Shown here one piece after another: positions 2,962 to 60,329 of a DNA stretch of 64,000 nt. Position numbers and translations under genes: made by a program. This DNA is from Escherichia phage LHE83. Each line of letters opens with the position of its first letter. The first letter of the stretch is position 1. The stretch lies in the sequence record OQ561750; one strand, 5' to 3'. The notes under the pieces were generated by a model. That model saw only the letters and a list, made by a program, of their open reading frames with translations. It was not told where the DNA came from and did no database searches.

Positions 2962-3236
2962 TTGAAGATATCAAGGGTTACAAACCACATACCGACGATA
3001 AAATCGGTAAAGTGAATGCTATTAAAGATGCCGAAATTCGGTTAGGGCTGATGTTTAAAGCTCTAGAAGAAGAACATGTTACCTATTATATGAACTTAGA
3101 TACCGAAGAGGTTTCTGAACAAGAACTAGACCAGGCTCATGAACGCATTACCCAGATTCGTAATGCAATTGACCGTCTTAAAGAAGCTAGTATGTGGGCT
3201 TGTCGCTCTGTGTTCCAACCAGAAGAAAAGTACTAA
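2958..3236 (+). CDS. hypothetical small helical protein (vs-region)
   Basis: ORF track; ATGA overlap with upstream stop. Confidence 0.5.
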   Translation: MIEDIKGYKPHTDDKIGKVNAIKDAEIRLGLMFKALEEEHVTYYMNLDTEEVSEQELDQAHERITQIRNAIDRLKEASMWACRSVFQPEEKY

Positions 3237-3240: not shown

Positions 3241-3270
3241 GTTTACATCTCCTGTAGGTATGATACTATA
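3241..3270 (+). promoter_or_regulatory. early promoter cassette upstream of regB
   Basis: GTTTAC then 17 nt then TGATACTAT then CCTATCAAC; inverted repeat CTCCTGTAG/CTACAGGAG flanks the -10 and includes the Shine-Dalgarno. Confidence 0.55.
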
Positions 3271-3297
3271 AACCTATCAACTACAGGAGATTACAAA

Positions 3298-3756
3298 ATG
3301 TCAGAAATTAATTCAGAAGTATTCATCCGCCGCAATAAATTACGTCGTCAGTTCGAAACCGAATTCCGCGAACTGAATGCGTCCATCAAAAAAGCCGCCA
3401 TTAAGAGCGGAGTCCCAGCCTTCTTTATTAAGTACTCTAATCACTTGTTGGACCGTGCTATCCAACGTGAAATCGACGAAAAATACGTTTTTGCTTTATT
3501 CAAGCAACTCCATAACCATGTTAAAGAAATTCATGAATTTTTAATCCAGGAACCTCTGCCTGATGTAGAAGCCGAAATCATTCCTGGTAAAGTGTATCGC
3601 CCATTGCGTCTCGAAATTACCGATAAAACCTTATGGCTAGGTATGACTGTAGATCGTAAACATCCTGATAAAGGATACTCGTTAAAATGTCGTATGGCAT
3701 TTGTTAACTCTAAACGTTTAGAAGGTAAAACCAGCACGAAAGTAATCTATCTTTAA
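3298..3756 (+). CDS. regB: RegB site-specific endoribonuclease
   Basis: Internal ATG after the promoter cassette; MSEINSEVFIRRNKLRR...LLDRAIQREIDE resembles T4 RegB; track start 3139 runs through the promoter. Confidence 0.85.
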   Translation: MSEINSEVFIRRNKLRRQFETEFRELNASIKKAAIKSGVPAFFIKYSNHLLDRAIQREIDEKYVFALFKQLHNHVKEIHEFLIQEPLPDVEAEIIPGKVYRPLRLEITDKTLWLGMTVDRKHPDKGYSLKCRMAFVNSKRLEGKTSTKVIYL

Positions 3757-7107: not shown

Positions 7108-7110
7108 TCA

Positions 7111-7138
7111 AAGGTCTCACTTCGGTGGGACCTTTTTT
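7111..7138 (+). terminator. rho-independent terminator (UUCG-loop hairpin plus U-run)
   Basis: AAGGTCTCAC-TTCG-GTGGGACCTTTTTT. Confidence 0.6.
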
Positions 7139-7147: not shown

Positions 7148-7180
7148 GTTTACATCCTCTAGGAACATGATACTATAGAC
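7148..7180 (+). promoter_or_regulatory. early promoter cassette
   Basis: GTTTAC...TGATACTATAGACCTATCAACT, then GAGGAG Shine-Dalgarno. Confidence 0.55.
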
Positions 7181-7204
7181 CTATCAACTAATGAGGAGAA
7201 CAGT

Positions 7205-7441
7205 ATGAAACTTACAAGTACTACGGTTTCATTAGAATATGAAATCAACGGTCGTATCCTTGAGATTAAGATATTCGACGACCGAAGTATCTTCGCTGAT
7301 TATCGAGGATACAGAATTCGTCTAGAAAAGGACGAGCTCAAGGAACCGTGGCTCCTTAAAGACACATTAAAGGGTTGTGGATGTAAACTGAAGACTACCC
7401 AAGCCCAAGAATTAATTTCTACTATCAACAAATACTGGTGA
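7205..7441 (+). CDS. hypothetical protein
   Basis: ORF track; canonical cassette and Shine-Dalgarno upstream. Confidence 0.55.
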   Translation: MKLTSTTVSLEYEINGRILEIKIFDDRSIFADYRGYRIRLEKDELKEPWLLKDTLKGCGCKLKTTQAQELISTINKYW

Positions 7442-9988: not shown

Positions 9989-9990
9989 TA

Positions 9991-10010
9991 AAGGCCTTCG
10001 GGCCTTTTTT
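9991..10010 (+). terminator. rho-independent terminator
   Basis: AAGGCC-TTCG-GGCC followed by TTTTTT. Confidence 0.6.
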
Positions 10011-10029: not shown

Positions 10030-10060
10030 GTTTACACTCTCGTAGAGCATGTTATTATGG
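10030..10060 (+). promoter_or_regulatory. early promoter cassette
   Basis: GTTTAC then 17 nt then TGTTATTAT, then CCTATCAAA. Confidence 0.5.
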
Positions 10061-10095
10061 ACCTATCAAATCTACTGAGTGAAATGGAGAATATA

Positions 10096-11076
10096 ATGTT
10101 AACTATCAAAATCAACAAAGGTATCTATCGCGGTAATGTAATCTCTGGTACGTTCATGAGTTCAGGTAAAACCTGGTTCCCTAATAAAATTCATGAATCA
10201 GAAGCTCACCTCGGTGACGGCAAGGTATTCGTACAGATTGATGGTGTTGAACGTGGTGTATGGGTGTTCAAATGTGACGTTGAAATGGAAGGTGCTGAAG
10301 CTCCTGCAGTTGTTACTGAATCCGCTGAAGAAATGAAACATCGCATTAACAAACGTTTTAAAGTAATGAACATGATGACCAACGGAATCATCGATGGTAA
10401 AATTCGTTCCCTTATCATCTCTGGTGCCGCAGGTATTGGTAAAACGTATTCTTTGGATAAAGCATTACAAAATGCCCACGAAAATGAAACTATCGAATAT
10501 AAATCAATCAACGGAAAGATTAGTGGAATCGGTCTTTACGAGCAGCTTTGGAATAACCGCGGCCCTAATAGTGTTCTTCTTATTGATGATGTTGATGTAT
10601 TCTCTGATATGGATATCCTGAACCTGTTAAAAGCAGCATTGGATACCGGTGAAAAACGTAAGGTGTGCTGGAGCACTTCAAGTTCTTACCTCGATGATAA
10701 AAACATCGATAAAGAATTCGAATACGAAGGCACCATCGTGTTCATCACCAACGTTGATATCGACCGTGAATTAGAGCGTGGAACTAAACTTGCTCCACAC
10801 CTCCAGGCTTTAGTATCTCGTTCAGTTTACTTAGACCTCGGAGTTCACTCTAACGAAGAGATTATGGTCCGTGTTGAAGACGTTATCCTGTCCACTGATA
10901 TGATGCAAAACCGTGGTCTGACTGATGCCGAGACTTATCAAGCACTGTCCTGGATGAAGGCTAATGTATCTCGTCTTCGTAACGTATCATTACGTACAGC
11001 TCTTTATCTGGCGGACTTCATTGCCACCGATAAAAATGACTGGAGCGAAATCGCTGAAGTTACACTTCTGAAATAA
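10096..11076 (+). CDS. P-loop NTPase (Walker A GAAGIGKT, Walker B LLIDDVD)
   Basis: Start moved to the ATG after the terminator/promoter; track start 9985 reads through the terminator. Confidence 0.55.
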   Translation: MLTIKINKGIYRGNVISGTFMSSGKTWFPNKIHESEAHLGDGKVFVQIDGVERGVWVFKCDVEMEGAEAPAVVTESAEEMKHRINKRFKVMNMMTNGIIDGKIRSLIISGAAGIGKTYSLDKALQNAHENETIEYKSINGKISGIGLYEQLWNNRGPNSVLLIDDVDVFSDMDILNLLKAALDTGEKRKVCWSTSSSYLDDKNIDKEFEYEGTIVFITNVDIDRELERGTKLAPHLQALVSRSVYLDLGVHSNEEIMVRVEDVILSTDMMQNRGLTDAETYQALSWMKANVSRLRNVSLRTALYLADFIATDKNDWSEIAEVTLLK

Positions 11077-11430: not shown

Positions 11431-11460
11431 GTTTACATCTCCAGTAGAAATGATACTATA
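11431..11460 (+). promoter_or_regulatory. early promoter cassette
   Basis: GTTTAC...TGATACTATAGACCTATCAACT; inverted repeat CTCCAGTAG/CTACTGGAG. Confidence 0.55.
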
Positions 11461-11485
11461 GACCTATCAACTACTGGAGGTTATC

Positions 11486-12010
11486 ATGAACGCTAAAGAT
11501 ATTTTTTCACTGATTAATTTCAACAACGGTAATTTCAAATCTGAAAAACAAAGCAAGTTCTTTAATGATGTTGCTTGTGGTAATGAGATTACCGTATCTG
11601 GAGGAGAGATTTACAAAAGCCGTTGGAACTGGATTGTTATCATCGATTCAGTTGGTATTGTAGAGCTCTATAAAAACACTAACAAAAAACGTACTCTTCA
11701 CTGGAGTCGTGAAACCAATCAAGCTTATCAAGCTGAACGTAACAAACGTTTAATGCCTACCGAATCCGACCTGGCAAACGTTAAATCTGATATCGCTTAT
11801 TTCGATAATCTGATTGCAGAGGAACAAGCGGTTATTGATAAGTTTGACGAAATCAAAGCTTGTAAAGAGATTCCTGAATTTATGCGGGAATCAGTAAATG
11901 AACAGTACGCCCTCACTTCAGGTCGTATCGAGCAGTACAAATCGCAACGAGCTGAACGCCAAGCTCTGCTTCAGAAATTTGAAGAGCGTTTAAAGACGGT
12001 TCTCGCATAA
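11486..12010 (+). CDS. hypothetical protein with C-terminal coiled-coil tail
   Basis: ORF track. Confidence 0.5.
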   Translation: MNAKDIFSLINFNNGNFKSEKQSKFFNDVACGNEITVSGGEIYKSRWNWIVIIDSVGIVELYKNTNKKRTLHWSRETNQAYQAERNKRLMPTESDLANVKSDIAYFDNLIAEEQAVIDKFDEIKACKEIPEFMRESVNEQYALTSGRIEQYKSQRAERQALLQKFEERLKTVLA

Positions 12011-14006: not shown

Positions 14007-14040
14007 GTTTACATCCAAGGACGGATGGAGTATAATCTTT
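14007..14040 (+). promoter_or_regulatory. early promoter
   Basis: GTTTAC then TATAAT with about 19 nt spacing, then CTACTGAGGAG Shine-Dalgarno. Confidence 0.5.
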
Positions 14041-14063
14041 TTAAATCTACTGAGGAGAATATC

Positions 14064-15074
14064 ATGACTCGTACTGAATACATTAATGCCTTTACTACGT
14101 ATATCACTGCCAACACCCCTCCGTTAACCCCATACGAGGTAATAGTTTCTAATATCAATAAATGGGTCGACCAAATTGATGATGCATTATCGCGCTGTTT
14201 CAAAGCTGAAATCGAAAAGATTGCAGGCCGTTTGTGCATTCATGATATCATTAAAACATTTAAAGGTTCTCGACTGCTTTCGCGCCTGGTCAATAAGGAC
14301 ATCCTTTCTGAGTTCGGTAAAGAGAAATATCCAGGTTCCAACCGTGTTGTTAGCTACAAATGGTTTGGTGATACCATAAAAGGTTATATCAAAATTAAAG
14401 GTATGGACCCTAATAGTTTATTTCCGCAACGTTGGGTTAGCGAATTCAAGGCTAACTCTGCATTAATTCTCAAAGCGGCCTCTAAAACTATAGTTTCCGG
14501 TGATTGTCGTACTATTCACCCGATGGCTAATTGCATGATTAAAACAAATAGTTATAAAGGAAAAGCTATTATTTCTGTTATTTGGTCACCTAATAGGAAA
14601 CCTAAAGATGATGCGGAAGTTGTAAAGTATCAAGATATTGCTTACGATACCTTGAATACTATCGAACAAGCTTTAGCTCTGATGGATACCGTAGAGAAAT
14701 ATGAGACCCAAGAAGTTAAACACCACTTAGGCTGGAAAGGATATGAGGTCTTAGTAACAGTCCGTGAAATCAAATGTACCGTTCCAAAAACTGATGCTGA
14801 AATTTACAAAGAAAAATGTGAGGAAATTGTGAACACTGATAAAGAGCCTGCTACATTAGAAGATTTGATTAACGACTTGAACAGCCCTATCATGGCCCCT
14901 ACACCAATTACTAAATCCAAGTTACCGGAAGTCGTTGCCTTGGAAAAAGCGTATAAAGACGCCCTTGCTATCAACAAAAAACTGACTGGCCAATATACTG
15001 CTGCCAAGAAACTTTGGGAAGAGTCTACCAATCGTTTAGACCGTCTTGAACAGGCTCTGGAGCTGCTGAAATGA
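14064..15074 (+). CDS. hypothetical protein with C-terminal coiled-coil tail
   Basis: ATG after GAGGAG Shine-Dalgarno; track start 14025 lies inside the promoter. Confidence 0.55.
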   Translation: MTRTEYINAFTTYITANTPPLTPYEVIVSNINKWVDQIDDALSRCFKAEIEKIAGRLCIHDIIKTFKGSRLLSRLVNKDILSEFGKEKYPGSNRVVSYKWFGDTIKGYIKIKGMDPNSLFPQRWVSEFKANSALILKAASKTIVSGDCRTIHPMANCMIKTNSYKGKAIISVIWSPNRKPKDDAEVVKYQDIAYDTLNTIEQALALMDTVEKYETQEVKHHLGWKGYEVLVTVREIKCTVPKTDAEIYKEKCEEIVNTDKEPATLEDLINDLNSPIMAPTPITKSKLPEVVALEKAYKDALAINKKLTGQYTAAKKLWEESTNRLDRLEQALELLK

Positions 15075-16333: not shown

Positions 16334-16390
16334 GCCATGGTATGTCGCTCGGTGGGATACGATAGAACCTACCGAGCCAGAGGAACCCGT

Positions 16391-16420
16391 TTACAACGAT
16401 TCCGAAATAGAGTATAATGA
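16391..16420 (+). promoter_or_regulatory. early promoter
   Basis: GTTTAC then 16 nt then TATAAT. Confidence 0.45.
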
Positions 16421-18072: not shown

Positions 18073-18131
18073 TATTTACTTCCTCTCCTCACGTGTTATA
18101 GTCTATCCTATCAACACATGAGGAGAACATT

Positions 18132-18314
18132 ATGACTATCCAAGATAAAGAAATTAAAGCCGACCAGTATTATTCAGTAAATGGCTACCCTGTTCAAATA
18201 ACAAAGGTAACAAATCTCGATGTATGGTATCAACCTTTGACTCACCCTGATGCTCCATTGATGGTGTGCGACCGTCCTTTATTTTGTTCAGTAGCTAAGG
18301 AAATTAAATCATGA
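18132..18314 (+). CDS. hypothetical protein
   Basis: ORF track; cassette with GAGGAG Shine-Dalgarno upstream. Confidence 0.5.
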   Translation: MTIQDKEIKADQYYSVNGYPVQITKVTNLDVWYQPLTHPDAPLMVCDRPLFCSVAKEIKS

Positions 18315-19000: not shown

Positions 19001-19201
19001 ATGAATCCTGAATCTAAATTATCACAGCGAATTGCTGAAGCTCGTCGTCAGTTCTTTGAAAATATGATAGCCCAAGGTATTGATGACGAAGTTTTTCTGA
19101 ACTGGTTTTGGAACCACAAATATTCAAGTTGTTCAGGCGCTTTATTAATTTCAGCTGCATCTATGTACGAAGGCTGGAAAGGTGCAATGAGTCAAAAATA
19201 G
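19001..19201 (+). CDS. hypothetical protein
   Basis: ORF track. Confidence 0.5.
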   Translation: MNPESKLSQRIAEARRQFFENMIAQGIDDEVFLNWFWNHKYSSCSGALLISAASMYEGWKGAMSQK

Positions 19202-19232
19202 TTTACAAACTCTTGGGACCAGAGTATAATGG
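19201..19232 (+). promoter_or_regulatory. early promoter
   Basis: GTTTAC then 18 nt then TATAAT; GGACC/GGTCC inverted repeat flanks the -10. Confidence 0.5.
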
Positions 19233-19268
19233 TCCTACGGATTATAAATTTTAACTGAGGAAATTATT

Positions 19269-19598
19269 ATGTCACAAGCTATTAAAAACGTACTGAACTC
19301 TTTCGCTTTCGATAAAGTAAACGAACTGATGAAAACTGGTTTTGTAACTCCTCAGGTTCTTGACCAATGGGTTGCTGAACTGTTACCTATCATGCACTCT
19401 AAAGACCAGAAAATTGGTAAGAATGGTATTCGTGAAATCCTGGTTCAATATATCCTTGATGAATTCGATGTCGCTGCCTTTGGTGTCGAATCCAAAGCTT
19501 GGCACCCAGGTGAAATCACGGATAAAACTATCCGTCGTATGAAAAACCAACGTAAGAAAAAATTCGTTGACCTGAAAATTGTTAAGGCAGCGAAATGA
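19269..19598 (+). CDS. hypothetical protein
   Basis: ORF track; start cassette about 30 nt near-identical to that of 12074. Confidence 0.55.
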   Translation: MSQAIKNVLNSFAFDKVNELMKTGFVTPQVLDQWVAELLPIMHSKDQKIGKNGIREILVQYILDEFDVAAFGVESKAWHPGEITDKTIRRMKNQRKKKFVDLKIVKAAK

Positions 19599-29054: not shown

Positions 29055-29075
29055 AAGGGACTTCGGTCCCTTTTT
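29055..29075 (+). terminator. rho-independent terminator
   Basis: GGGAC-TTCG-GTCCC followed by TTTTT. Confidence 0.6.
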
Positions 29076-29133
29076 GGAGTATAATGATTCATCAACAAAC
29101 AAAAGACAATCACTCGTCTATAAAGGAAATGAA

Positions 29134-31845
29134 ATGCAAGAATTCTATTTGACAGTCGAACAAATCGGTGATAATATTCTCGAACGTTACATCGATAAAA
29201 ATGGTAACGAACGTAGTCGTGAAGTTCCATACAAGCCTACAATGTTTATGCATGCTAATCCAGAGCAAGCCGTAAAATACATTGATATCTATGGTAAGGG
29301 TTGTGTTAAGAAAGAATTCGATTCTATGCGTGATGCATCCCAATGGATGAAACGTATGGATGATATGGGTCTCGAAGCCCTGGGTATGGACGACTATAAA
29401 TTAGCCTATTTGTCTGATACCTATCGTAAAGAAATCAAATATGATTCTTCTAAGATTCGTATTGCTAACTTCGACATCGAGGTAACATCTCCTGATGGAT
29501 TCCCTGAACCAGCTCAGGCTAAACATCCTATCGATGCCATTACCCACTACGACTCGATTGACGATAAATTCTATGTATTCGACCTTTTAGTTTCGCCTTA
29601 TGGTACTGTCGAAGAGTGGTCGATTAAAATCGCTGAGAAACTCCAAGACGAAGGCGGTGACGAAGTTCCACAAGAAATCATTGACAAAATCGTTTATCTT
29701 CCGTTTAATTCTGAAGAAGAAATGATGCTTGAGTACTTGAATTTCTGGCAACAGAAAACTCCTGTGATTTTGACTGGATGGAACGTTGAGTCGTTTGACG
29801 TACCATACGTTTATAACCGTCTGAAAAATCTGTTCGGTGAGAACACTGCTAAGCGATTAAGCCCACATCGTAAAACTCGTGTTAAAGTTATCGAGAACAT
29901 GTACGGTGCTCGTGAAATCATTACATTGTTCGGTATCTCTGTTCTGGATTATATCGACCTGTATAAAAAATTCAGCTTTACCAACCAGCCTTCTTATTCT
30001 CTGGATTATGTTTCTGAATATGAATTGAAAGTAGGTAAGTTGAAATATGATGGCCCAATCTCCAAGTTACGTGAGACGAACCACCAACGATATATTTCCT
30101 ATAACATTATCGACGTATATCGTGTAGTGCAGATTGATATGAAGCGTCAGTTCATTCTTCTGAGTTTGGACATGGGTTATTATGCCAAGATGCAGATTCA
30201 GTCGGTGTTCAGCCCAATTAAGACTTGGGACGCTATTATCTTTAATAGCCTTAAAGAACAAGGCAAGGTAATTCCACAAGCTCGCTCACACGTGGTCCAA
30301 CCTTATCCTGGTGCTTTCGTTAAGGAACCGATTCCTAACGCTTACAAATATGTAATGAGTTTCGACCTTACATCTCTGTACCCGAGTATCATTCGACAAG
30401 TGAATATAAGCCCAGAGACCATCGCAGGGACATTCGCTAACGCACCGATACATGAATATATTGCCGGAACTGCTCAGCGTCCTAGCGACACCTACAGTTG
30501 CTCTCCTAACGGCATGATGTACTATAAAGACCGTGAAGGTGTGATTCCGACAGAAATCACCAAGGTATTCTTGCAGCGTAAAGAACATAAAGGTTACATG
30601 CTTGCAGCTCAACGTAATGGTGAGTTAATTAAAGAAGCATTGGAAAATCCTAATCTCTCAGTTGATAGTCCACTGGATATCGATTATCGTTTTGACTTCT
30701 CTGACGAAATCAAAGCCCAGATTAAAGCACTGTCAGCGCCTTCTTTAAGAGAAATGTTGAAGAAAGCCGAGCTCACTGAAGTTGCAGGTAACACTGCTCA
30801 GATTAACCGTAAGTTGCTTATCAACTCCCTTTATGGTGCACTTGGTAACGTATGGTTCCGTTACTATGACCTCAGGAACGCAACTGCAATCACATTGTTT
30901 GGTCAAATGGCCCTCCAATGGATTGAACGTAAGGTTAACGAATATCTGAATAGCGTGTGTAAGACTGAAAACCAGAAGTTCGTGCTCTACGGTGATACTG
31001 ACTCCATTTATGTTAAGGCAGATGCAATCATCAATAAAGTAGGCGAAGATAAATTCCGTGATACTAACCACTGGGTCGACTTCTTAGATAAATTTGCACG
31101 TGAACGTATGGAACCAGCTATTGATGCAGGCTTCCGTGAGATGTGCGAATACATGAACAACAAACAACACTTGATGTTCATGGACCGAGAAGCTATCGCA
31201 GGTCCTCCACTTGGTTCTAAAGGCCTTGGTGGATTCTGGACAGGCAAGAAACGTTATGCACTTAACGTTTGGGACATGGAAGGTACTCGTTATGCTGAAC
31301 CACACTTGAAAATCATGGGTCTCGAAACTCAGAAATCAAGTACACCTAAAGCAGTTCAGAAAGCTCTGAAGGAATGTATCCGTCGTATGCTTCAGGAAGG
31401 CGAGGCATCTTTGCAAGAATATTTCAAACAGTTTAATAAGGAATTTAACGAACTCGATTATGTAAGCATTGCAGCAGTATCCAGTGCTAACAACATCGAG
31501 AAATATAATGAAGGTGGATTCCCGGGTTCTAAATGTCCATACCACATCAAAGGTTGCTTAGCTTACATGCGTGCTTCTGCAGGTGATTTGACTATGCCTC
31601 GTATCGTTGATGGTGAAAAGGTATATGTACTGCCACTTAAAGAAGGCAACCCGTTTGGTGAAGCTTGTATGGCATGGCCGTCAGGTATTGAACTTCCGGT
31701 TCAGATTCGTGACCAAGTCCTCCGTTGGATGGACTACAACGTACTGTTCCAAAAGACCTTTATCAAACCTCTGACCGGTTTTACTGAGTCTGCTAAAATC
31801 GACTACGAGAAAAAAGCAACATTATTTGATATGTTCGACTTTTAA
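29134..31845 (+). CDS. 43: DNA polymerase gp43 (family B)
   Basis: Start at internal ATG (MQEFYLTVEQIGDN) after AAAGGAAATGAA RBS, giving 903 aa; exo motifs FDIEV and YNIIDV; pol motifs SLYPSI, KILINSLYGALG, YGDTDS; track start 29074 is TTG. Confidence 0.95.
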   Translation: MQEFYLTVEQIGDNILERYIDKNGNERSREVPYKPTMFMHANPEQAVKYIDIYGKGCVKKEFDSMRDASQWMKRMDDMGLEALGMDDYKLAYLSDTYRKEIKYDSSKIRIANFDIEVTSPDGFPEPAQAKHPIDAITHYDSIDDKFYVFDLLVSPYGTVEEWSIKIAEKLQDEGGDEVPQEIIDKIVYLPFNSEEEMMLEYLNFWQQKTPVILTGWNVESFDVPYVYNRLKNLFGENTAKRLSPHRKTRVKVIENMYGAREIITLFGISVLDYIDLYKKFSFTNQPSYSLDYVSEYELKVGKLKYDGPISKLRETNHQRYISYNIIDVYRVVQIDMKRQFILLSLDMGYYAKMQIQSVFSPIKTWDAIIFNSLKEQGKVIPQARSHVVQPYPGAFVKEPIPNAYKYVMSFDLTSLYPSIIRQVNISPETIAGTFANAPIHEYIAGTAQRPSDTYSCSPNGMMYYKDREGVIPTEITKVFLQRKEHKGYMLAAQRNGELIKEALENPNLSVDSPLDIDYRFDFSDEIKAQIKALSAPSLREMLKKAELTEVAGNTAQINRKLLINSLYGALGNVWFRYYDLRNATAITLFGQMALQWIERKVNEYLNSVCKTENQKFVLYGDTDSIYVKADAIINKVGEDKFRDTNHWVDFLDKFARERMEPAIDAGFREMCEYMNNKQHLMFMDREAIAGPPLGSKGLGGFWTGKKRYALNVWDMEGTRYAEPHLKIMGLETQKSSTPKAVQKALKECIRRMLQEGEASLQEYFKQFNKEFNELDYVSIAAVSSANNIEKYNEGGFPGSKCPYHIKGCLAYMRASAGDLTMPRIVDGEKVYVLPLKEGNPFGEACMAWPSGIELPVQIRDQVLRWMDYNVLFQKTFIKPLTGFTESAKIDYEKKATLFDMFDF

Positions 31846-31847: not shown

Positions 31848-31880
31848 GTTTACATACCACAAGGAACGTGGTAGTATCCT
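31848..31880 (+). promoter_or_regulatory. early promoter cassette
   Basis: GTTTAC...GTAGTATCC...CCTATCAAC; TACCAC/GTGGTA inverted repeat. Confidence 0.5.
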
Positions 31881-31907
31881 TCCTATCAACTACATGAGGA
31901 AATTACA

Positions 31908-32144
31908 ATGGAAGCTTTAATCGTTAGTGCTGGTGTTTTAGGATTCGGTTCTCTGGTTATTATGTTCATCGGTTACTTTTTACCATGGATTCTGGCTCTT
32001 CTGCGAGGCACTCGTAGTAATGTCGGAATTTTCTTCCTTAATCTCCTGTTAGGCTGGACGATGATTGGTTGGGTAGTGGCTTTAATCTGGGCTATCGTCG
32101 CTGAACGTAAATCAAACGCACAAATCATTATTGTTAAGCAATGA
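31908..32144 (+). CDS. imm: superinfection immunity protein Imm-like
   Basis: 78 aa, two transmembrane segments; FFLNLLLGWTMIGWVVALIWA resembles the Imm family signature; syntenic with T4 imm downstream of 43. Confidence 0.65.
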   Translation: MEALIVSAGVLGFGSLVIMFIGYFLPWILALLRGTRSNVGIFFLNLLLGWTMIGWVVALIWAIVAERKSNAQIIIVKQ

Positions 32145-38569: not shown

Positions 38570-39993
38570 AAACTATTTTGGCTCAACTGCTAGGCAATAG
38601 TGATTATTTCACTAAGGTCTGGCCTTATATGAATGATTCTTATTTTGACCAGGGTCCTGCAAAGACCCTTTTCAAAGAAATTAAAAAACACGTCAATGAA
38701 TATAATGCAGTGCCTTCTAAGAACGCGCTGAGCATTGCATTAGATAACAGCACGCTTTCAGAAGTTGAACACCAAGGCGCTAAAGAGCTTTTAAGTTCAC
38801 TGAATGCCGGACCTGAAGACCAAGAATGGTTGGTTAAAGAGACGGAGAAATACGTTCAGAAAGCAGCGATGTATAATGCAACTTCAAAAATCATTGAAAT
38901 CCAAACTAATGCAGACCTTCCGGTTGAGCAACAAAATAGAAAACTTCCAGGTATTGGTGCTATTCCAGATATCATGCGTGATGCATTATCGATTTGTTTC
39001 GATTCTGAATTAGGTCATGACTGGATGGATGACTATGAAGAACGTTTCAAAAGTTATTCTGATAAAGCACGTAAGGTTCCGTTCCGTCTTAATATTCTGA
39101 ATAAGATTACCAAAGGTGGTGCCGAGTTTGGTACTGAAAACGTATTGTTGGCAGGAACAAACGTAGGTAAGTCTCTTGGTCTTTGTTCATTGGCTGCTGA
39201 TTATCTTCAATCTGGTTACGATGTTCTTTATATCTCCATGGAGATGGCAGAGGAAGTATGTGCTAAGCGTATCGATGCCAACCTTCTGGATGTGTCACTG
39301 GATGATATCGATGACGGCCATGTCTCTTGGCCTGAATATAAAGCTAAGATGGATAAATGGCGTTCAACTGCTACTTTAGGTCGTTTAAAGATTAAACAGT
39401 ACCCTACCGGTGGCGCTAATGCCGATACATTCCGTGCATTATTAAACGAATACAAACTCAAACAAAACTTTGTTCCACAGGTCGTTATCGTCGACTACTT
39501 GGCCATCTGTGCATCATCTCGTACGAAAGTTTTCTCTGAAAACAGTTACGGATTGATTAAGATGGTAGCCGAAGAACTACGTGGACTTGCAGTAGAAAAG
39601 AAATTATTGTTGTGGACTGCAGCCCAGACTACTCGTGGTGCGAACGTTGCAGCCGAAATCGATATGGCTGATATTGCTGAATCCTTTGGTATTGCACATA
39701 CTGCAGACTTCATGTTAGGTGTGGTCGAGACAGAAGAGTTTGCTCAGATGGGTATGCAGATGGTTAAGCAGCTTAAATCTCGTTATGGTGATAAGAGCTA
39801 CTACAACAAATTTAAGATTGGTGTTAAGAAAGGAAATCAACGTTGGTACGAAGTTGAAGACGATTCCAACCCAGGCCAGGTGAACACCGTTCGTGAGGCT
39901 ACAGGTGAGATGAATCGTCAAGCCGAGGTCAATCGACAGACGCTTGTTAATAGAAGTGATTTGGACGATTTAGCAGCATCTATCAAATTTTAA
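38563..39993 (+). CDS. 41: replicative DNA helicase gp41 (DnaB-like)
   Basis: GTG start chosen by alignment to the T4 gp41 N-terminus (MVE.IL); AAGAGGTGG Shine-Dalgarno; Walker A GTNVGKS; C-terminus as T4. Confidence 0.9.
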   Translation: MVETILAQLLGNSDYFTKVWPYMNDSYFDQGPAKTLFKEIKKHVNEYNAVPSKNALSIALDNSTLSEVEHQGAKELLSSLNAGPEDQEWLVKETEKYVQKAAMYNATSKIIEIQTNADLPVEQQNRKLPGIGAIPDIMRDALSICFDSELGHDWMDDYEERFKSYSDKARKVPFRLNILNKITKGGAEFGTENVLLAGTNVGKSLGLCSLAADYLQSGYDVLYISMEMAEEVCAKRIDANLLDVSLDDIDDGHVSWPEYKAKMDKWRSTATLGRLKIKQYPTGGANADTFRALLNEYKLKQNFVPQVVIVDYLAICASSRTKVFSENSYGLIKMVAEELRGLAVEKKLLLWTAAQTTRGANVAAEIDMADIAESFGIAHTADFMLGVVETEEFAQMGMQMVKQLKSRYGDKSYYNKFKIGVKKGNQRWYEVEDDSNPGQVNTVREATGEMNRQAEVNRQTLVNRSDLDDLAASIKF

Positions 39994-40013
39994 GGAGCTT
40001 CGGCTCCTTTTTT
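39992..40013 (+). terminator. rho-independent terminator
   Basis: AGGAGC-TTCG-GCTCCT followed by TTTTTT. Confidence 0.6.
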
Positions 40014-40022: not shown

Positions 40023-40052
40023 GTTTACATCTCCTGTAGGCGTGATACTATA
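40023..40052 (+). promoter_or_regulatory. early promoter cassette
   Basis: GTTTAC...GTGATACTATAGACCTATCAACT. Confidence 0.55.
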
Positions 40053-40075
40053 GACCTATCAACTTGGAGAACAAA

Positions 40076-40393
40076 ATGAAAACCATCGACTGTAAAGCAG
40101 AATATAAAGTGTATTATCATGGAAGTTGTAGTGTCGCTAATATCGGTAATATGCTTTGTCCTCCTGAGGAAACAGGAGTTTTGTCTGAAACCGGTCGTAA
40201 GAAAAACCTAAATCGTGTGTTCTTTACTGAAGATATCGGTTTGGCTAAGATTTATGCTGGACGTGCAGCCCGTTCAGTGGGAGGAGAACCTCGTCTTTAT
40301 CGTGTAATTGCTCCGGTGGATGTGGTTTGTTTAAATGATACTAAAGGCGCTACGGTTTATCATGCTGAATGGGCCTTCTGTGAGGAAATCTAA
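40076..40393 (+). CDS. hypothetical protein
   Basis: First ATG of track ORF 40064 (TTG). Confidence 0.5.
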   Translation: MKTIDCKAEYKVYYHGSCSVANIGNMLCPPEETGVLSETGRKKNLNRVFFTEDIGLAKIYAGRAARSVGGEPRLYRVIAPVDVVCLNDTKGATVYHAEWAFCEEI

Positions 40394-40597
40394 ATGCCTA
40401 AATTAGAGAAAGTAGTGTTTATTGGTTGGTTTGAAAATGGTAATATGTTTACCAAAGAAACCGTTCTGGATGTTAGTGACCAAAATATGATTGAATGGGT
40501 TACAGTGCAGTATGCAGAAGTGAATAATGCGCTGGTGAAAGCCTTTGTTGATGACAATAAAGTTTTTGAGTGTGATTACCGTTCTAACGAAAAATAA
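40394..40597 (+). CDS. dmd: Dmd (antitoxin against RnlA/LsoA-type RNases)
   Basis: KVVFIGWFENGNMFTKE...QYAEVNNALVKAFVDDNKVFECD resembles T4 Dmd from memory. Confidence 0.75.
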   Translation: MPKLEKVVFIGWFENGNMFTKETVLDVSDQNMIEWVTVQYAEVNNALVKAFVDDNKVFECDYRSNEK

Positions 40598-40599
40598 CA

Positions 40600-40635
40600 G
40601 TTTACATCAAAGGGATAATGCAGTATATTATCCCT
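40600..40635 (+). promoter_or_regulatory. early promoter cassette
   Basis: GTTTAC...GCAGTATATTATCCCTATCAACT; GGGATAAT/ATTATCCC inverted repeat. Confidence 0.5.
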
Positions 40636-40657
40636 ATCAACTACCGAGGAGAACATT

Positions 40658-40951
40658 ATGAAAAAGTTATTAATCGCAGCAATTCTTGCCGTAGCATCAT
40701 GTGGTACAGCTCCAGTTACTGCTGGACTTGATAAAGACCTTTGTGAATGGTCTATGACTGCAGACCAAGAATCGGTCGAACATCAGATTTATGCTGATAT
40801 CATGAACATCACTAAACGTGACCGCCCTGATATGGTTAAAGAAGTGTCAGACCAATTGGCTTCAAGCGGCGTTATGCAGTATAACTATGTTCTGTATTGT
40901 GACGCTAATTTCGATAACAAAAACATCGTTAAAGAGGTGACAGGTGAATAA
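40658..40951 (+). CDS. sp: Spackle (periplasmic superinfection-exclusion protein)
   Basis: 97 aa; signal peptide; DKDLCEWSMTADQ...GVMQYNYVLYCD near-identical to T4 Sp from memory. Confidence 0.75.
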   Translation: MKKLLIAAILAVASCGTAPVTAGLDKDLCEWSMTADQESVEHQIYADIMNITKRDRPDMVKEVSDQLASSGVMQYNYVLYCDANFDNKNIVKEVTGE

Positions 40952-44107: not shown

Positions 44108-44131
44108 AAGGAACCTTCGGGTTCCTTTTTT
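44108..44131 (+). terminator. rho-independent terminator
   Basis: AAGGAACC-TTCG-GGTTCCTT followed by TTTT. Confidence 0.6.
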
Positions 44132-44141: not shown

Positions 44142-44175
44142 GTTTACTTTCTAAGAAGGTTATGTTAAGATGGTC
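44142..44175 (+). promoter_or_regulatory. early promoter
   Basis: GTTTAC then downstream -10-like TATGTTAAGAT. Confidence 0.4.
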
Positions 44176-44197
44176 TTATCTTATAGAGGAGAATGCT

Positions 44198-44407
44198 ATG
44201 TTAAATCGTTGGATTAAACCAAATAAAACTTTAGATGAAATTATCGCTAACCACGTATTGAAAAAGTACTTTTATACGCCTTGGTATACCGAAGTTATTG
44301 TCCATTCATTTATGATGCATGAAGACGGTTCTATCGAATTTAATGCCGAAATCCGTCACGAGACTGATGATATTGATAAAGTTGAATTTAAACGAGGTTT
44401 CCTATGA
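44198..44407 (+). CDS. hypothetical protein
   Basis: Internal ATG after GAGGAGAATGCT Shine-Dalgarno of track ORF 44162. Confidence 0.45.
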   Translation: MLNRWIKPNKTLDEIIANHVLKKYFYTPWYTEVIVHSFMMHEDGSIEFNAEIRHETDDIDKVEFKRGFL

Positions 44408-45754: not shown

Positions 45755-45809
45755 AGTTTTACACCTCCTCCCTTCATGTTATAATGACCTCTAAATCACT
45801 GGAGGTCAT

Positions 45810-46379
45810 ATGAACATCGAACAAAAATGTCTTTATCAAGACCGAATCAATTCCAAATTCTCAAAACACGAACAGAATCTTTTAGAAAAATGTCTAGATG
45901 CTAAAAAGGACCCTAACTTCCATTACGACCTTGATAAGCTAGTTCGTAAGCATGTTACTTCAGCGGTTCCGGTAGAGCTTTATCGTGGGATTACCGCTAT
46001 GGAACTTGAGCAACTTGAAGTTCTTTCTGTTGGGTGCCAGTGGTCTCCTGGCCGGGTTACTTCTTTTAGTACACAATACTCACAGGCTCGTCAGTTCGCA
46101 GGGGCATGGGAATATGGAACCAGAACCATTTTAAGTCTCAGGAATGCACCGTTCATTTTCGACTACTATAACCATGCTATCGACCTTGTTCTTGCAGGGA
46201 ATGTAGATGAGCTTGAAATAGATGAAACCCGTATAGACCTCTACGATATGGTCGAAACTGAATGTGAGTTCATGGTCTCCAGCCAATCACGATTTGAGAT
46301 TGTGGAAATCGAAACTATCAAAAGGGACCCGTACGAAATCGAGTACAAAACAATTCATTTAAAAATGTTGGATTTTTAG
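45810..46379 (+). CDS. ModA/ModB-family ADP-ribosyltransferase
   Basis: R-S-E signature: YRG, SFS(T), acidic catalytic segment; syntenic with T4 modA/modB. Confidence 0.6.
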   Translation: MNIEQKCLYQDRINSKFSKHEQNLLEKCLDAKKDPNFHYDLDKLVRKHVTSAVPVELYRGITAMELEQLEVLSVGCQWSPGRVTSFSTQYSQARQFAGAWEYGTRTILSLRNAPFIFDYYNHAIDLVLAGNVDELEIDETRIDLYDMVETECEFMVSSQSRFEIVEIETIKRDPYEIEYKTIHLKMLDF

Positions 46380-46410
46380 TTTACAGGCAAGGAAGCTTGT
46401 GGTACTATCT
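46379..46410 (+). promoter_or_regulatory. early promoter cassette
   Basis: GTTTAC...GTGGTACTATCTTTCTATCAACT. Confidence 0.5.
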
Positions 46411-46433
46411 TTCTATCAACTGAGGAGAATAAT

Positions 46434-47048
46434 ATGTTATATCCAAGCCATAAATTAGCAGAATTTATCAACAACGCCAAATGCGATGATTTCCGTGAGA
46501 ATACTCAGATAGAAATTGATGAGGTGTATTCTGATTTAGAACAGAGCACGCTCTGGCAGTGTATGGAAAATAAACCAGATACTATCCAGGAAACTCTGAA
46601 CAAAATTATTCGTAAGAACCTGACTTCTGCAGTGCCTGATAAGTTGTATCGCGGAATTTCTAAGAAGACTATGGCATATCTTGAATCTACGATGTGCGTA
46701 GGTGCTGTAATTGAATTCGACCGTGTGATGAGCTTCTCAAAAGATTTCAATGTAGCTCGTAACTTCGCATCTTATAACTTCTACGGCACATTTAATATCT
46801 TTTGTATTAATGATGCACCATTTGTGTACAATTATCAGGAAGAAATCTTTAAAATGTTATGTGCCGCGCCCCCTGAAGAGTTCCCAGGTGCATTTCCTGA
46901 ATCTACCCGTGTAGCAAACTTACAATTAATCAATGATGAAGATGAGATGATGTTCCCTGCGGGAACTACGCTGAGCGTAGACTCTATTGAGAGAAATCCT
47001 AAATGGAATAATTACACCATTTGGAATCTTTCCGTTCTTTCTTACTGA
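46434..47048 (+). CDS. ModA/ModB-family ADP-ribosyltransferase (paralog)
   Basis: YRG, SFSK and EDEMMF (E-x-E-like) motifs; paralog of 45810. Confidence 0.6.
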   Translation: MLYPSHKLAEFINNAKCDDFRENTQIEIDEVYSDLEQSTLWQCMENKPDTIQETLNKIIRKNLTSAVPDKLYRGISKKTMAYLESTMCVGAVIEFDRVMSFSKDFNVARNFASYNFYGTFNIFCINDAPFVYNYQEEIFKMLCAAPPEEFPGAFPESTRVANLQLINDEDEMMFPAGTTLSVDSIERNPKWNNYTIWNLSVLSY

Positions 47049-47116: not shown

Positions 47117-47148
47117 TGTTTACTTTACCGAGCAACATGATACTATAG
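47117..47148 (+). promoter_or_regulatory. early promoter cassette
   Basis: GTTTAC...CATGATACTATAGACCTATCAGCT. Confidence 0.55.
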
Positions 47149-47186
47149 ACCTATCAGCTAATCGTCCGTAAGATGAGAAAAATATT

Positions 47187-47936
47187 ATGCCTACTATTAA
47201 AACTAACGATGAATTTGAGTTAAAGGTTTACAAACGTCGCGAACACACTAAAGCCTCTGCCAAAAAACGTGGTAAGGACTTTAACCTGTCTAGTAAGTAC
47301 GTTCGTAGACTTCTTGAACAAAAAGTGTGTGCATATTCAGGCGAGCGCTTTGATGAGAATTCAGATAAAGATAAGATTTCGTTTGAACGCTTTAACAACG
47401 ATATAGGTTATATCGAAGGTAATGTAATCCCGGTTAAAGTTAAGTACAACGGGTTGCGAGCTGATTTGTCTTTAGATGAATTGAAACGTGCACAGACTCG
47501 TTTAGCGTCCCGTATTTCAGGTGGTTCTAAAATGCCTAATAGTTTTAAAGTTACCCCAGATAATTATTATAAAATTCGTAAAATAGTTAAAAATATTAAA
47601 GATACCCAAAGAGGTCTTAAAAAGCGTGAAAAACGTCTTAAGGACCTTATTAAATCAGGAGCCACTGATAATACCCCTTCTGTCATCGCGGTTAAGGCCC
47701 GTATCCATGGTTCTAACGCTTCAATAGGTACTATGGAAAAGGGTCTTAAATCTTTAATTGGTGGGCCTGATTGGCGTGTCAAGTTTAAATTGTCTGAAGC
47801 AGAAACGCGTTACGATATGTATGATAAAATTATTCAAGGTCTGGAGCGTTTAGAACACCTTTCTTTTATTGACAAAATGAAGTTGAAAAAAGGTCTTCCG
47901 CTGAATGCTTCAATTTTTTCACTGATTAGAGGTTAA
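47187..47936 (+). CDS. srd: Srd-like protein (by position and size)
   Basis: 249 aa, basic; sits between the ADP-ribosyltransferases and dda as T4 srd. Confidence 0.5.
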   Translation: MPTIKTNDEFELKVYKRREHTKASAKKRGKDFNLSSKYVRRLLEQKVCAYSGERFDENSDKDKISFERFNNDIGYIEGNVIPVKVKYNGLRADLSLDELKRAQTRLASRISGGSKMPNSFKVTPDNYYKIRKIVKNIKDTQRGLKKREKRLKDLIKSGATDNTPSVIAVKARIHGSNASIGTMEKGLKSLIGGPDWRVKFKLSEAETRYDMYDKIIQGLERLEHLSFIDKMKLKKGLPLNASIFSLIRG

Positions 47937-50487: not shown

Positions 50488-50520
50488 GTTTACTTCTCCT
50501 CATGACATGTTATTATCTAC
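50488..50520 (+). promoter_or_regulatory. early promoter cassette
   Basis: GTTTAC...TGTTATTATCTACCCTATCAAC; CTCCTCATG/CATGAGGAG inverted repeat includes the Shine-Dalgarno. Confidence 0.55.
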
Positions 50521-50543
50521 CCTATCAACATGAGGAGAACAAA

Positions 50544-51053
50544 ATGAAAATTTATCGAGTCGAGTCATCGTTCAGTATCTTAGATAACAGCGATGTTATA
50601 GCAATCACTCACCAACAGTGCCGCCAATTAACACCGTATAGAGGCTCGTTTGATGAATGGAGCGAAGGTTGGTTATTAGAAGTAGGTTTCGACAGACCCA
50701 ATTTTAGGCACCACCATACCAATAATAAAAATATTCCGCTACCAGGTCAAGACAAGTTGTTGGTGGAAAATTCTAATAAAAGCATTAGAACTAAGTGGAA
50801 CCAGCCTGATTATGAAGGCTGTGATGATTATATTCCAGGTTGGTTTGTTAATCTCTACCATTTTGCTTTTGCCAGTGAGTATGATATGATGCGCTGGTTC
50901 ACTCGTGAAGAGCGTGAAGAATTATCTTCTAAAGGATTCTATCTTGCCGTTTACGAAATCCCTGAAGATGAGGTTGTCATTGGTGGCCGCCAAGTAATGT
51001 TCCGCAAATCCCATGCTGAACTCGTAGATTTTATTGAATTGAGAACAATATGA
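50544..51053 (+). CDS. hypothetical protein
   Basis: ATG after GAGGAGAAC Shine-Dalgarno; track start 50502 lies inside the promoter. Confidence 0.5.
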   Translation: MKIYRVESSFSILDNSDVIAITHQQCRQLTPYRGSFDEWSEGWLLEVGFDRPNFRHHHTNNKNIPLPGQDKLLVENSNKSIRTKWNQPDYEGCDDYIPGWFVNLYHFAFASEYDMMRWFTREEREELSSKGFYLAVYEIPEDEVVIGGRQVMFRKSHAELVDFIELRTI

Positions 51054-51600: not shown

Positions 51601-51630
51601 GTTTACTTTATCGAGAGCCATGTTATAATG
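51601..51630 (+). promoter_or_regulatory. early promoter
   Basis: GTTTAC then 17 nt then TATAAT; GAGAGCCAT/ATGGCTCTC inverted repeat. Confidence 0.55.
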
Positions 51631-51671
51631 GCTCTCATGGAGAATAAACTTATTAACCAAGAGAGAAAATT

Positions 51672-52223: not shown

Positions 52224-52295
52224 AGTTTAAAAACAGTATACACTATGGTAGGGTAGTGATACTATTACCCTATCAACAAATGAGAGGAAAATAAA

Positions 52296-52514
52296 ATGGC
52301 TAAAGTTACTGTGAACTCGACTCGTGAAGAATTTGAAGATGTTCTGTTCAACCCTGATTTAATCGTGGTTCAAAAGGAACATTCTGATACGTTTTCTCAT
52401 TTATCGTCGGTTTATGTATACGAAAACCAAGGTGACAAAAATCCTATCTATGCAGTGTTCCGTGAAATCACTGCTGAAGGCATTGACTACTGGAAGGAGA
52501 CTTATAATGTCTAA
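52296..52514 (+). CDS. hypothetical protein
   Basis: ORF track. Confidence 0.5.
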   Translation: MAKVTVNSTREEFEDVLFNPDLIVVQKEHSDTFSHLSSVYVYENQGDKNPIYAVFREITAEGIDYWKETYNV

Positions 52515-55500: not shown

Positions 55501-55519
55501 TTCTCTAAGAGGTGAGAAT

Positions 55520-60305: not shown

Positions 60306-60329
60306 CTATCAACTTGAGAGGAAAACAAA

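Follow-up and report, generated by a model that had tools for sequence, protein, structure and literature searches.

In a 64,000-nucleotide stretch of DNA from Escherichia phage LHE83 (OQ561750; the whole stretch is called the window below, and all coordinates refer to it), we analyzed a family of repeated early-promoter cassettes, taking as the focal example the one in front of the endoribonuclease gene regB (positions 3241-3300). The spacer that separates the -35 box of this promoter from its -10 box is complementary to the Shine-Dalgarno (SD) sequence of the gene that follows it, and comparable helices recur at orthologous promoters of other T4-type phages whose pairing arms are entirely different in sequence. 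The reading we favor, and to which we would give an even chance, is that the promoter-embedded hairpin hides the ribosome-binding site (RBS), together with the site recognized by the nuclease RegB, in RNA that reads through from upstream.

The focal element sits on the plus strand between the vs.4 stop codon (3234-3236) and the regB ATG (3298), the gene being identified by synteny with phage JS10. Its -35 hexamer GTTTAC (3241-3246) is that of the T4 early consensus (PMC1524935) and is followed, within the spacer, by a left arm, ATCTCCTGTAG (3247-3257), which includes the anti-SD tetramer CTCC and lies upstream of the predicted transcription start (+1). Next come an extended -10 (3261-3269), made of TG (3261-3262), one base, and TACTAT (3264-3269); the start-site motif CCTATCAAC (3273-3281), within which sigma-70 geometry predicts the +1 at A3276; and a right arm, CTACAGGAGAT (3281-3291), containing the SD GGAG (3286-3289). 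Spacer and SD thus face each other in an 11-bp inverted repeat (3247-3257/3281-3291; -18.7 kcal/mol). A preliminary description of this DNA had quoted the inner part of the repeat, CTCCTGTAG (3249-3257) and CTACAGGAG (3281-3289), which is found in the place given, the full helix being 11 bp. The predicted fold of read-through RNA across the cassette has an energy of -19.8 kcal/mol (z = -3.96), and the sense and antisense strands pair equally well. The downstream coding sequence (3298-3756) specifies a protein 97-99% identical to Dhakavirus RegB, and loci with at least 98% identity include that of phage QL01.

We identified further copies with a rule-based scan of the window, which has 39% G+C and carries practically every gene on the plus strand. 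The rules required a GTTTAC-like -35 hexamer, a 16-18 nt spacer, TAnnnT, an SD, and an ATG or GTG opening an open reading frame (ORF) of at least 35 codons. The scan returned 26 sites on the plus strand and one on the minus strand; about 23 are credible cassettes, all of them on the plus strand, and three that fall within ORFs (2696, 18778, and 49732) are doubtful. The common layout is GTTTAC, 17-18 nt, (TG)n-TAnnnT, CCTATCAAC, GGAG/GAGG, and ATG. A first pattern, GTTTAC-N15-19-TATACT, had no match in the window, the actual -10 being TACTAT- or TATAAT-like. The preliminary description had counted at least 20 intergenic regions of shared architecture and named 17 positions; the count is borne out, each of the 17 is a real cassette, and six credible copies come in addition (1414, 14007, 44142, 45757, 52236, and 55472). 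The genome-wide motif search and alignment that it proposed recover the family and yield a consensus from 23 copies, and a de novo repeat search given no prior input also finds it, as repeats D1 (6 copies, 60 nt), D2 (8 copies, 40 nt), and D3 (9 copies, 25 nt). No Rfam family reaches its gathering threshold anywhere in the window. The copies cluster in the ipIII-nrdC-55, dmd-motB, and post-rIIB regions, near small or variable ORFs, and precede orthologs of T4 early genes as judged from JS10 synteny; within the block of replication and large genes (roughly 20-31.8 kb and 32-40 kb) the scan finds none.

The complementarity between spacer and downstream segment is on average stronger within a cassette than between cassettes. 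In a duplex test of all combinations of spacers and downstream segments (taken from the end of the -10 to the ATG), cognate duplexes have a mean energy of -11.3 kcal/mol versus -7.8 kcal/mol for non-cognate ones, a difference matched in 0 of 20,000 permutations (p < 5e-5). The same cognate excess is present in eight of nine other locus sets, drawn from no fewer than five further T4-type lineages (T4 was not among the permuted sets). These sets were regB- and modA-centred loci of other T4-type phages, among which BLAST identifies lineages like Enterobacter phage CC31, Salmonella phage STML-198, Escherichia phage phiE142 (RB69 group), and Klebsiella phage Potts1, the last comprising loci L026-28. 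In addition, the anti-SD tetramers CTCC or CCTC occur in 9 of the 23 spacers compared with 4.6% of random 17-nt windows (p = 5e-7), and a manual recount adds a tenth, in the spacer of 61684.

The pairing takes several forms, which we divide into classes. In class A (3241, 11431, 18074, 50488, 60941, and 45757), a spacer-SD helix encloses the -10 and the start site in a loop of 21-24 nt; 10030 resembles this class, except that the partner of its spacer is the leader upstream of the SD. The spacer pairs with the discriminator/start region around the -10 in class B (19201, 40600, 51601, 52236, and 61684), whereas a hairpin with an AAGGA-type loop lies entirely within the spacer in class C (14007, 31848, 60272, and 46379). 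Class D is represented by the denV cassette (960), where the -10/discriminator region pairs with the SD, and 7148 and 40023 show weak two-tier pairing. The earlier claim that the spacer pairs with the SD in many copies is accordingly right about the pairing and too generous about its partner: true spacer-SD pairing is confined to about 7-9 of the 23. Inverted repeats cited at 11439 and 50494 are where they were said to be, and so is that at 51613, although this last one flanks the -10, ends at the predicted +1, and excludes the SD of its gene. We rejected a protein operator as an explanation, since the arms vary among cassettes while their complementarity is kept, which indicates base pairing and not recognition by a sequence-specific dimer.

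Orthologous promoters show covariation: at regB and denV, the helix is retained despite complete turnover of the arm sequences. The regB arms are ATCTCCTGTAG/CTACAGGAGAT in Dhakavirus, TTTCTCCTCTTTATG/CATAAAGAGGAGAAA (15 bp) in STML-198-like phages, and GTGTAGGAGTA/TACTTCTACAC in the Klebsiella phages, and CC31-like phages have a two-tier arrangement of TCTCC/GGAGA plus GGGCTAT/ATAGCCC. In T4, the arms TTTTCCTCTTGACTG/CAGTTAAGAGGAGAA form a 15-bp spacer-to-SD helix with two G.U pairs (NC_000866 62741-62800, minus strand), and the T4 denV promoter carries the same type of stem. At denV we find six distinct arm pairs across six lineages, and perfect helices of 13-15 bp occur in lineages with differing arms. 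T4 regB is also the sole case informative about the strand: its sense RNA folds at -23.1 kcal/mol (z = -3.9) versus -14.0 kcal/mol (z = -1.0) for the antisense.

On the evidence of their sequence, we take the elements to be sigma-70-type T4 early promoters joined to an SD, as the preliminary description also did, and the match of GTTTAC to the published T4 early -35 consensus (PMC1524935) supports this. T4 early promoters have GTTTAC at -35, a TGn-extended -10, and an A-rich UP region (PMC1524935, PMC2988021). Among the 23 copies, T-12, A-11, and T-7 are invariant and T-15/G-14 occur in 20, and the aligned consensus reads T-15, G-14, T-12, A-11, A-8, T-7, C-3, C-2, T-1, A+1, T+2, C+3, A+4, A+5, and C+6. 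The 15 nt upstream of the -35 are modestly enriched in A (0.40 versus 0.31 genome-wide) and in AT (0.68 versus 0.61), in a region where stop codons and terminator tails overlap. With T4 early promoters the cassettes have in common the -35 hexamer, the spacing, the TG extension, and the strand, as well as the genes served (regB, denV, modA, modB, srd, motB, cef, and 55.2). They differ at the start: the motif here is CCTATCAAC, whereas T4 uses several start regions, CCTATCAAC at denV included. The Klebsiella T4-like phages have CCTACAC-type start motifs, unlike the CCTATCAAC of the window.

With at most one mismatch, CCTATCAAC occurs 32 times in the window versus 13.1 +/- 3.5 expected, a number reached in 0 of 100 shuffles. 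Twelve of its 13 exact copies are on the plus strand inside cassettes, constantly 3-4 nt past the -10 hexamer. The usual sigma-70 geometry predicts the +1 at the A of the motif, 7 nt after the -10; because of this placement, CCTATCAAC would consist of the end of the discriminator and the first six transcribed bases. Such a 5'-end motif agrees with the bias toward C reported for positions -3 to -1 in early promoters of the T4-like phages RB69, RB49, and 44RR (PMC1524935), and it suits the earlier guess that the motif marks a transcript 5' end, the predicted end being straddled from C-3 to C+6. The longer ACCTATCAAC, which had been called invariant, is not so: the consensus base at positions -3 to +6, +7, and +8 is present in 12-18 of the 23 copies. 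Loop pairing of TGATA with TATCA was discarded as an explanation of CCTATCAAC, as the motif is kept where the -10 region is TGTTATTAT (10030 and 50488). The predicted leaders are mostly 18-24 nt long, and from the +1 to the SD they are free of G in 19 of the 23 cassettes (AUCAACUA-type). Other lineages have different start regions, which are also G-free (ACACCAA, AUACCAAA). Our literature search found no genome-wide start-site data set for T4 or JS98.

The position of the start relative to the arms determines which RNAs could fold. Relative to the predicted +1, the left arm spans about -29 to -19 in class A and ends at -2 to +1 in classes B and D. Being upstream of the +1, it would be absent from the transcript of the cassette itself, and both arms would be together only in read-through RNA. 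The preliminary description had the nascent 5' untranslated region folding to sequester or present the RBS; this does not hold, as the left arm lies between the -35 and -10, upstream of any usable start, and the predicted leaders, when folded as it had suggested, do no better than shuffled sequences (z = -0.35 to +1.7). RNA that includes the promoter has predicted energies of -17.8 to -24.1 kcal/mol (z = -3.2 to -5.1) for five class-A copies. In predicted folds, the SD is unpaired with a mean probability of 0.30 in read-through RNA versus 0.60 in the cassette's own RNA (Wilcoxon p = 1.5e-4), and this value falls to 0.00-0.06 in read-through RNA at 3241, 7148, 11431, 14007, 18074, 45757, 50488, and 60941. 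In a set of 119 non-redundant cassettes taken from 12 genomes, masking of the SD (unpaired probability below 0.1) is predicted for 37 read-through RNAs versus 3 own RNAs. Since the own transcript would not contain the left arm, the hairpin could act only in RNA arriving from upstream or at the level of DNA. In class B and C cassettes, the SDs are more open than in chimeras with other promoters, which suggests that masking is chosen gene by gene.

These observations are consistent with the following scheme. Each element would be a self-contained expression cassette with an early promoter for the host sigma-70 enzyme, a short G-poor leader, and a GGAG/GAGG RBS. In about one-third of the copies, that of regB included, the 5' part of the spacer would supply the anti-SD CTCC/CCTC and bases complementary to the flanks of the SD. 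Transcription from the cassette would start at the A of CCTATCAAC, between the arms, so its mRNA would be without the left arm and its SD free; such mRNA could be translated immediately and would also be exposed to the GGAG-specific nuclease RegB. RNA from an upstream promoter would hold both arms, and in classes A and D a helix, of 11-15 bp in the spacer-SD copies, would bury the SD, thereby tying both translation and RegB cleavage to the immediate-early promoter of the gene itself. The gene would be insulated from read-through and its expression confined to the first minutes of infection, and the same helix would shield the SD from RegB in long RNAs. In other copies, the spacer would form a local hairpin around or before the -10 and leave the SD open, and the near-identical cores may double as patches of homology at which cassettes are exchanged. 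In T4, it is a normal mode for early transcripts to read through into downstream genes (PMC2988021), and canonical terminators in the window number only about seven. Published work describes regB as a gene with an early promoter, shut off 2-3 min into infection and otherwise under tight control (PMC3014915), and RegB cuts GGAG in SD sequences, from which RNA structure protects (PMC3014915, PMC1702504). The focal gene would fit the favored reading well, being early, tightly controlled, and the source of a nuclease whose cutting is blocked by structure.

The closest precedents are the T4 genes e, soc, 49, and I-TevI, in which the RBS lies in a helix in long early transcripts while transcripts from an internal promoter skip the 5' strand of that helix (McPheeters 1986 and Gott 1988, as reviewed in PMC3014915). 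Common to both would be an SD and/or AUG in the 3' strand of a helix (predicted here), a promoter placed so that its transcripts are without the 5' strand (given the start site that we propose), and a dependence of translation on the promoter that made the RNA (likewise predicted). The internal promoter there is a late one, TATAAATA, which delays expression, whereas an immediate-early sigma-70 promoter takes its place here, which reverses the predicted effect: expression would be confined to the earliest phase. The arrangement here is also repeated at many genes and not unique to one. The cassettes would thus work like the e/soc/49/I-TevI hairpins without being members of that group, because their promoter is early and not late. 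What appears to be new is the spacer-to-SD helix built around an early promoter, the parts themselves being known. No description of such a helix at early promoters was found in the literature searched, whose coverage was incomplete and in which older work on T4 regB and denV was not included.

A similar comparison holds for the sites cut by RegB, which are GGAG sequences in early-gene SDs with the consensus GGAGRAYARAA and are protected by secondary structure (PMC3014915, PMC1702504). The cassette SDs likewise consist of GGAG/GAGG followed by A-rich sequence, and the only exact consensus matches in the window (40066-40076 and 50534-50544) are both cassette SDs; many others are one or two positions away from the consensus. 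The gene driven by the focal cassette is regB itself, and in relatives of T4 its SD is known to be cut by RegB. Published resistance to RegB, in contrast, has been ascribed to 3' context or terminator-like structures and not to pairing with a promoter spacer (PMC3014915, PMC1702504).

Several observations weigh against the favored reading. Chimeras with other promoters mask the SD equally well on average (0.27 versus 0.30, permutation p = 0.80), because the anti-SD is common to many spacers. We therefore dropped the idea that masking is specific to the cognate promoter half; cognate specificity resides in the extension of the helix and is seen in the duplex-energy test alone. Over 114 cassettes, sense and antisense strands pair equally well, the helices being almost wholly Watson-Crick, and the ratio of internal G.U to A.C pairs is 4 to 1, numbers too small to decide on selection at the level of the strand. 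Masking affects only about one-third of the cassettes and hence is not a family-wide property, and in some orthologs, such as the L025 copy of 11431 and the L036 copy of regB, pairs have been lost and not compensated. The helix might also be opened in part by a ribosome that terminates 8-11 nt ahead of the left arm. Finally, the cassettes, their strand bias, the complementarity with its covariation, and the predicted folds are what the sequences show, and the start site, the read-through RNA, in its existence and its amount, and the regulatory effect are what we infer for this phage. That the device extends across the Tevenvirinae (T4 regB and denV included), with a sizeable subset of immediate-early promoters set inside a helix burying a GGAG RBS, so that own RNA would be translatable and RegB-sensitive and read-through RNA silent and RegB-resistant, is a tentative generalization that we think possible, though the odds are against it.

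Two other explanations deserve consideration beside the favored one, and the first comes from the promoter-early stem-loops (PeSLs) of Arbiol et al. 2010 (PMC2839356) and Comeau et al. 2014 (PMC4122927), which we compare here as they are presented in the accessible portions of those papers. By structure, the cassettes belong to the PeSL class. Like PeSLs, they are intergenic, about 60-100 bp long, and repeated tens of times per genome; they combine a strong early promoter of sigma-70-like type with a 3'-terminal SD and ATG, fit the T4/PST consensus TTTACW-N17-TAYWAT, and carry a stem-loop that is placed variably with respect to the -35 and -10 (here within the spacer, around the -10, or from spacer to SD). 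They also share a location in plastic regions marked by indels, gene replacement, and recombination junctions between close relatives. The accessible part of PMC2839356 mentions PeSL-like sequences of JS98 only in passing, at the g43 locus, which corresponds to our cassette 31848. Published stems differ in that they are terminators or attenuators (GGGG..CCCC in RB49; AGNA..TCNT in T4/PST) located upstream of, between, or overlapping the promoter boxes, and the same portions of PMC2839356 and PMC4122927 describe neither a spacer-SD helix nor a translational consequence.

On the published view, the stems would terminate or attenuate incoming transcription, the cassette would then reset it, and the overlap with the SD would be incidental. 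An RB49 PeSL stem-loop cut lacZ expression as strongly as rrnB T1, and published stems sit between the -35 and -10 or overlap the -10 (PMC2839356, in its accessible part). Some of our copies look the part: the spacer hairpin of 46379 is followed by a T-rich -10 in terminator-like fashion and was flagged as such by a consensus scan (46381-46402), and the spacer hairpins of 14007, 31848, and 60272 precede UA-rich -10 boxes. The class-A helices do not, having long loops (21-24 nt) and no T-run after the 3' arm, and none was flagged as terminator-like. A separate family of canonical UUCG terminators exists as well, with several members right before cassettes, and the anti-SD enrichment is left unexplained. 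Terminator function accordingly looks unlikely for class A, and as an account of the spacer-SD stems we regard this view as improbable. The terminators themselves are near-identical, with CTTCGG (a UUCG tetraloop) and a T-run, and lie at 7110-7135, 9990-10007, 29055-29072, 39992-40009, 44108-44127, 53355-53370, and 55448-55465. Five of these roughly seven canonical terminators have a cassette -35 about 8-25 nt downstream, forming terminator-promoter composites. A further idea, that strong SD-masking stems replace upstream terminators, was abandoned for want of any association over the 119 cassettes (Fisher p = 1.0).

The second explanation places the element at the level of DNA, as hairpins or cruciforms in single-stranded or supercoiled DNA that create recombination hot spots (mini-circles and cassette exchange) and have no function in RNA. 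The preliminary description had nominated the near-identical cores as sites of PeSL-like recombinational shuffling, and close relatives indeed show cassette replacement and a crossover within the core. The window and one relative (L021) have the cassette GTGTTCTC/GAGAACAC at denV, where four other Dhakaviruses have a regB-type cassette. Over 52 nt, the focal cassette (3241-3293) matches the T4 denV promoter (NC_000866 65364-65415) at 98% identity, a match found only in T4, T4T, RB55, and RB59. Yet the genomes are only about 70% identical and the flanking genes far more diverged, suggesting that a cassette has moved between genera or between loci. Between dmd and sp (40394-40660), the window is without two small ORFs (one of them 61.4) found in QL01, JS98, and JS10; its dmd allele and sp cassette are similar to those of a more distant lineage (L045/46), the junction on the right falls inside the CCTATCAAC core, and QL01 has the reciprocal chimera. 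Of 131 breakpoints in alignments with 12 Dhakavirus loci, 11 lie in cassettes versus 3.5% expected (p = 0.007), a modest excess, uncorrected for the way in which intergenic DNA gathers breakpoints generally.

All of these exchanges, the equal pairing of sense and antisense strands, and the PeSL mini-circles demonstrated for RB49/phi1 (PMC2839356, in its accessible part) speak for an element of this kind. Homologous exchange, however, requires only a shared core and no gene-specific inverted repeat, and the arms vary among cassettes, which reduces homology. Loops of 21-24 nt are unfavorable for cruciform extrusion, and T4 regB requires two G.U pairs, so only its sense strand folds well. The breakpoint excess is modest, and intergenic DNA would be expected to gather breakpoints anyway. 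Neither the gene-specific arms nor the anti-SD enrichment is explained, and we judge that a purely DNA-level role is unlikely.

Translational coupling is less likely. Here the SD would stay closed unless a ribosome finishing the upstream gene melted the left arm, making output proportional to the upstream gene. The upstream stop codon does lie 8-11 nt before the left arm in four of five strong spacer-SD copies (3241, 11431, 18074, and 50488), and this spacing approximates the leading edge of a terminating ribosome. At that distance, though, the ribosome would touch no more than one or two pairs at the start of an 11-bp helix, the embedded promoter would become redundant, and no supporting evidence for coupling was seen in the window. 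At 60941, the listed upstream ORFs end at least 21 nt before the left arm. We find this explanation hard to credit. The notion that the stems are functionless by-products of cassette ancestry (duplication of a part-palindromic promoter) and of low complexity in the purine/pyrimidine composition of SD and spacer is likewise less likely, and very improbable in our view: several cassettes are plainly copies of one another (D1-D3), non-cognate chimeras mask equally on average, and some orthologs carry uncompensated changes, but it does not account for the cognate-specific pairing excess in the window and in eight of nine other locus sets, for regB and denV helices that outlive complete arm turnover, or for perfect 13-15 bp helices across lineages with differing arms.

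In its wider context, the window is, by its similarity to known genomes, from a Dhakavirus, one of the JS98/JS10/QL01 group of T4-type coliphages. Its first 20 kb are 96.6% identical to QL01 with 97% of the length covered, and its DNA polymerase gene 43 (29074-31845) is 99.8% identical to that of QL01. Synteny with annotated JS10 gives the gene order ipIII, denV, regB, tk, nrdC, 49, 55, 46/47, 45, 44, 62, regA, 43, uvsX, 41, dmd, 61, soc, modA/B, srd, dda, dexA, motB, cef, 39, rIIA, rIIB, and the region beyond. The remaining cassettes, all on the plus strand, are distributed along this order as follows.

The denV cassette (960-1020) has its left arm, GTGTTCTC (987-994), over the -10/discriminator and its right arm, GAGAACAC (1006-1013), overlapping the SD, with an SD unpaired probability of 0.16 in read-through RNA and 0.55 in own RNA. 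The cassette before an internal-head-protein gene (1414-1471) has no notable stem. Nearby, at 17-48, 655-686, and 1469-1500, three genes open with a common leader of about ten residues, MKTY[KQ]EFI..EA, which we take to be the capsid-targeting leader of T4 internal proteins; they would therefore be three tandem internal-protein genes, interleaved with denV. The cassette at 7148-7207 pairs weakly in two tiers (CCTC/GAGG plus TAGG/CCTA) directly after the UUCG terminator at 7110-7135, and the nrdC.10 cassette (10030-10098), whose spacer pairs with the leader at 10071-10081, directly follows the terminator at 9990-10007. Between 9953 and 10007, at the end of nrdC.11, we also noticed a good promoter match (GTTTAC, 18 nt, TATTAT) with a predicted start at the base of the 9990 terminator hairpin; this might be a half-cassette that has degraded, or else give rise to a tiny RNA.

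The nrdC.8 cassette (11431-11488) has an 11-bp spacer-SD stem (11437-11447/11471-11481; -17.8 kcal/mol), with fold z scores of -3.66 for read-through and +0.97 for own RNA. The nrdC.4 cassette (14007-14066) forms a hairpin within the spacer, ATCC-AAGGAC-GGAT, and its SD is predicted to be masked in read-through RNA. In the 49.x region, a strong promoter-like sequence at 16389-16420 (GTTTAC, 18 nt, TATAAT, then GAACCTTCAAAC) has no convincing SD or ORF directly downstream. The stem of the 55.6 cassette (18074-18134) comprises 12 pairs and one C.A mismatch (18084-18096/18114-18126; -18.3 kcal/mol, z = -3.77), and that of the 55.2 cassette (19201-19271), GGGACCA/TGGTCC, surrounds the -10 and leaves the SD open. 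Following gene 43, the cassette at 31848-31910 has the within-spacer hairpin ACCAC-AAGGAAC-GTGGT. At 40023-40078, directly after the terminator at 39992-40009, lies a cassette with a spacer identical to that of regB and a shortened right arm; the sp cassette (40600-40660), at the indel/mosaic junction described above, has the stem GGGATA/TATCCC around its -10. The cassette at 44142-44200 comes after the terminator at 44108-44127.

In the modB cassette (45757-45812), ACCTCC (45763-45768) pairs with GGAGGT (45801-45806), and the SD unpaired probability is 0.00 in read-through RNA. The modA cassette (46379-46436) carries the terminator-like spacer hairpin and T-rich -10 already mentioned, whereas the srd cassette (47118-47189), with a CCTATCAGC variant of the start motif and a 34-nt leader, has no notable stem. 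The motB.2 cassette (50488-50546) has an 11-bp spacer-SD stem (50494-50504/50529-50539; -18.1 kcal/mol, z = -5.08) and an SD that fits the RegB consensus, GGAGAACAAAA. In the motB cassette (51601-51674), GAGAGCCAT (51613-51621) pairs with ATGGCTCTC (51628-51636) around the -10 (-18.7 kcal/mol), the SD being outside the stem and unpaired with a probability of 0.82, and the cef cassette (52236-52298) similarly has a GGTAGGGTA/TACCCTATC stem around the -10 and an open SD. A cassette with a 12-nt leader (55472-55522; repeat family D6) is preceded by a UUCG terminator, and one with the within-spacer hairpin ACACCA-AGGA-TGGTGT (60272-60332) belongs to repeat family D18. With the -35 variant GTGTAC, the cassette at 60941-60998 has an 11-bp spacer-SD stem (60946-60956/60982-60992; -16.3 kcal/mol, z = -3.19). 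It precedes a strongly hydrophobic ORF of 36 codons (60996-61106; MKNLLKAIWNMFVLLMVLSIFPIVFMIDHVRVFFNF), likely a small membrane peptide of a size that short-ORF filters would pass over. The last cassette, at 61684-61764, has a CGAGAA/TTCTCG stem around its -10 and a 43-nt leader.

The basic elements, namely T4 early promoters, PeSLs, and hairpins over an RBS that internal promoters relieve, are already well known, and the gain would in that sense be incremental. If the favored reading is true, compact parts of about 60 bp whose expression depends on the local promoter only could be of use in phage engineering, and mobile promoter-gene cassettes would bring with them their own translational insulation from the transcriptional context into which they are inserted. 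It would partly explain how products such as the toxic nuclease RegB are confined to the first minutes of infection, and would go some way toward accounting for the different treatment that early and longer transcripts of one and the same gene receive from RegB and from ribosomes. Should the tentative generalization to the Tevenvirinae hold as well, the cassettes would constitute a general, sequence-encoded device that sorts immediate-early from delayed-early and middle RNA, for ribosomes and RegB alike.

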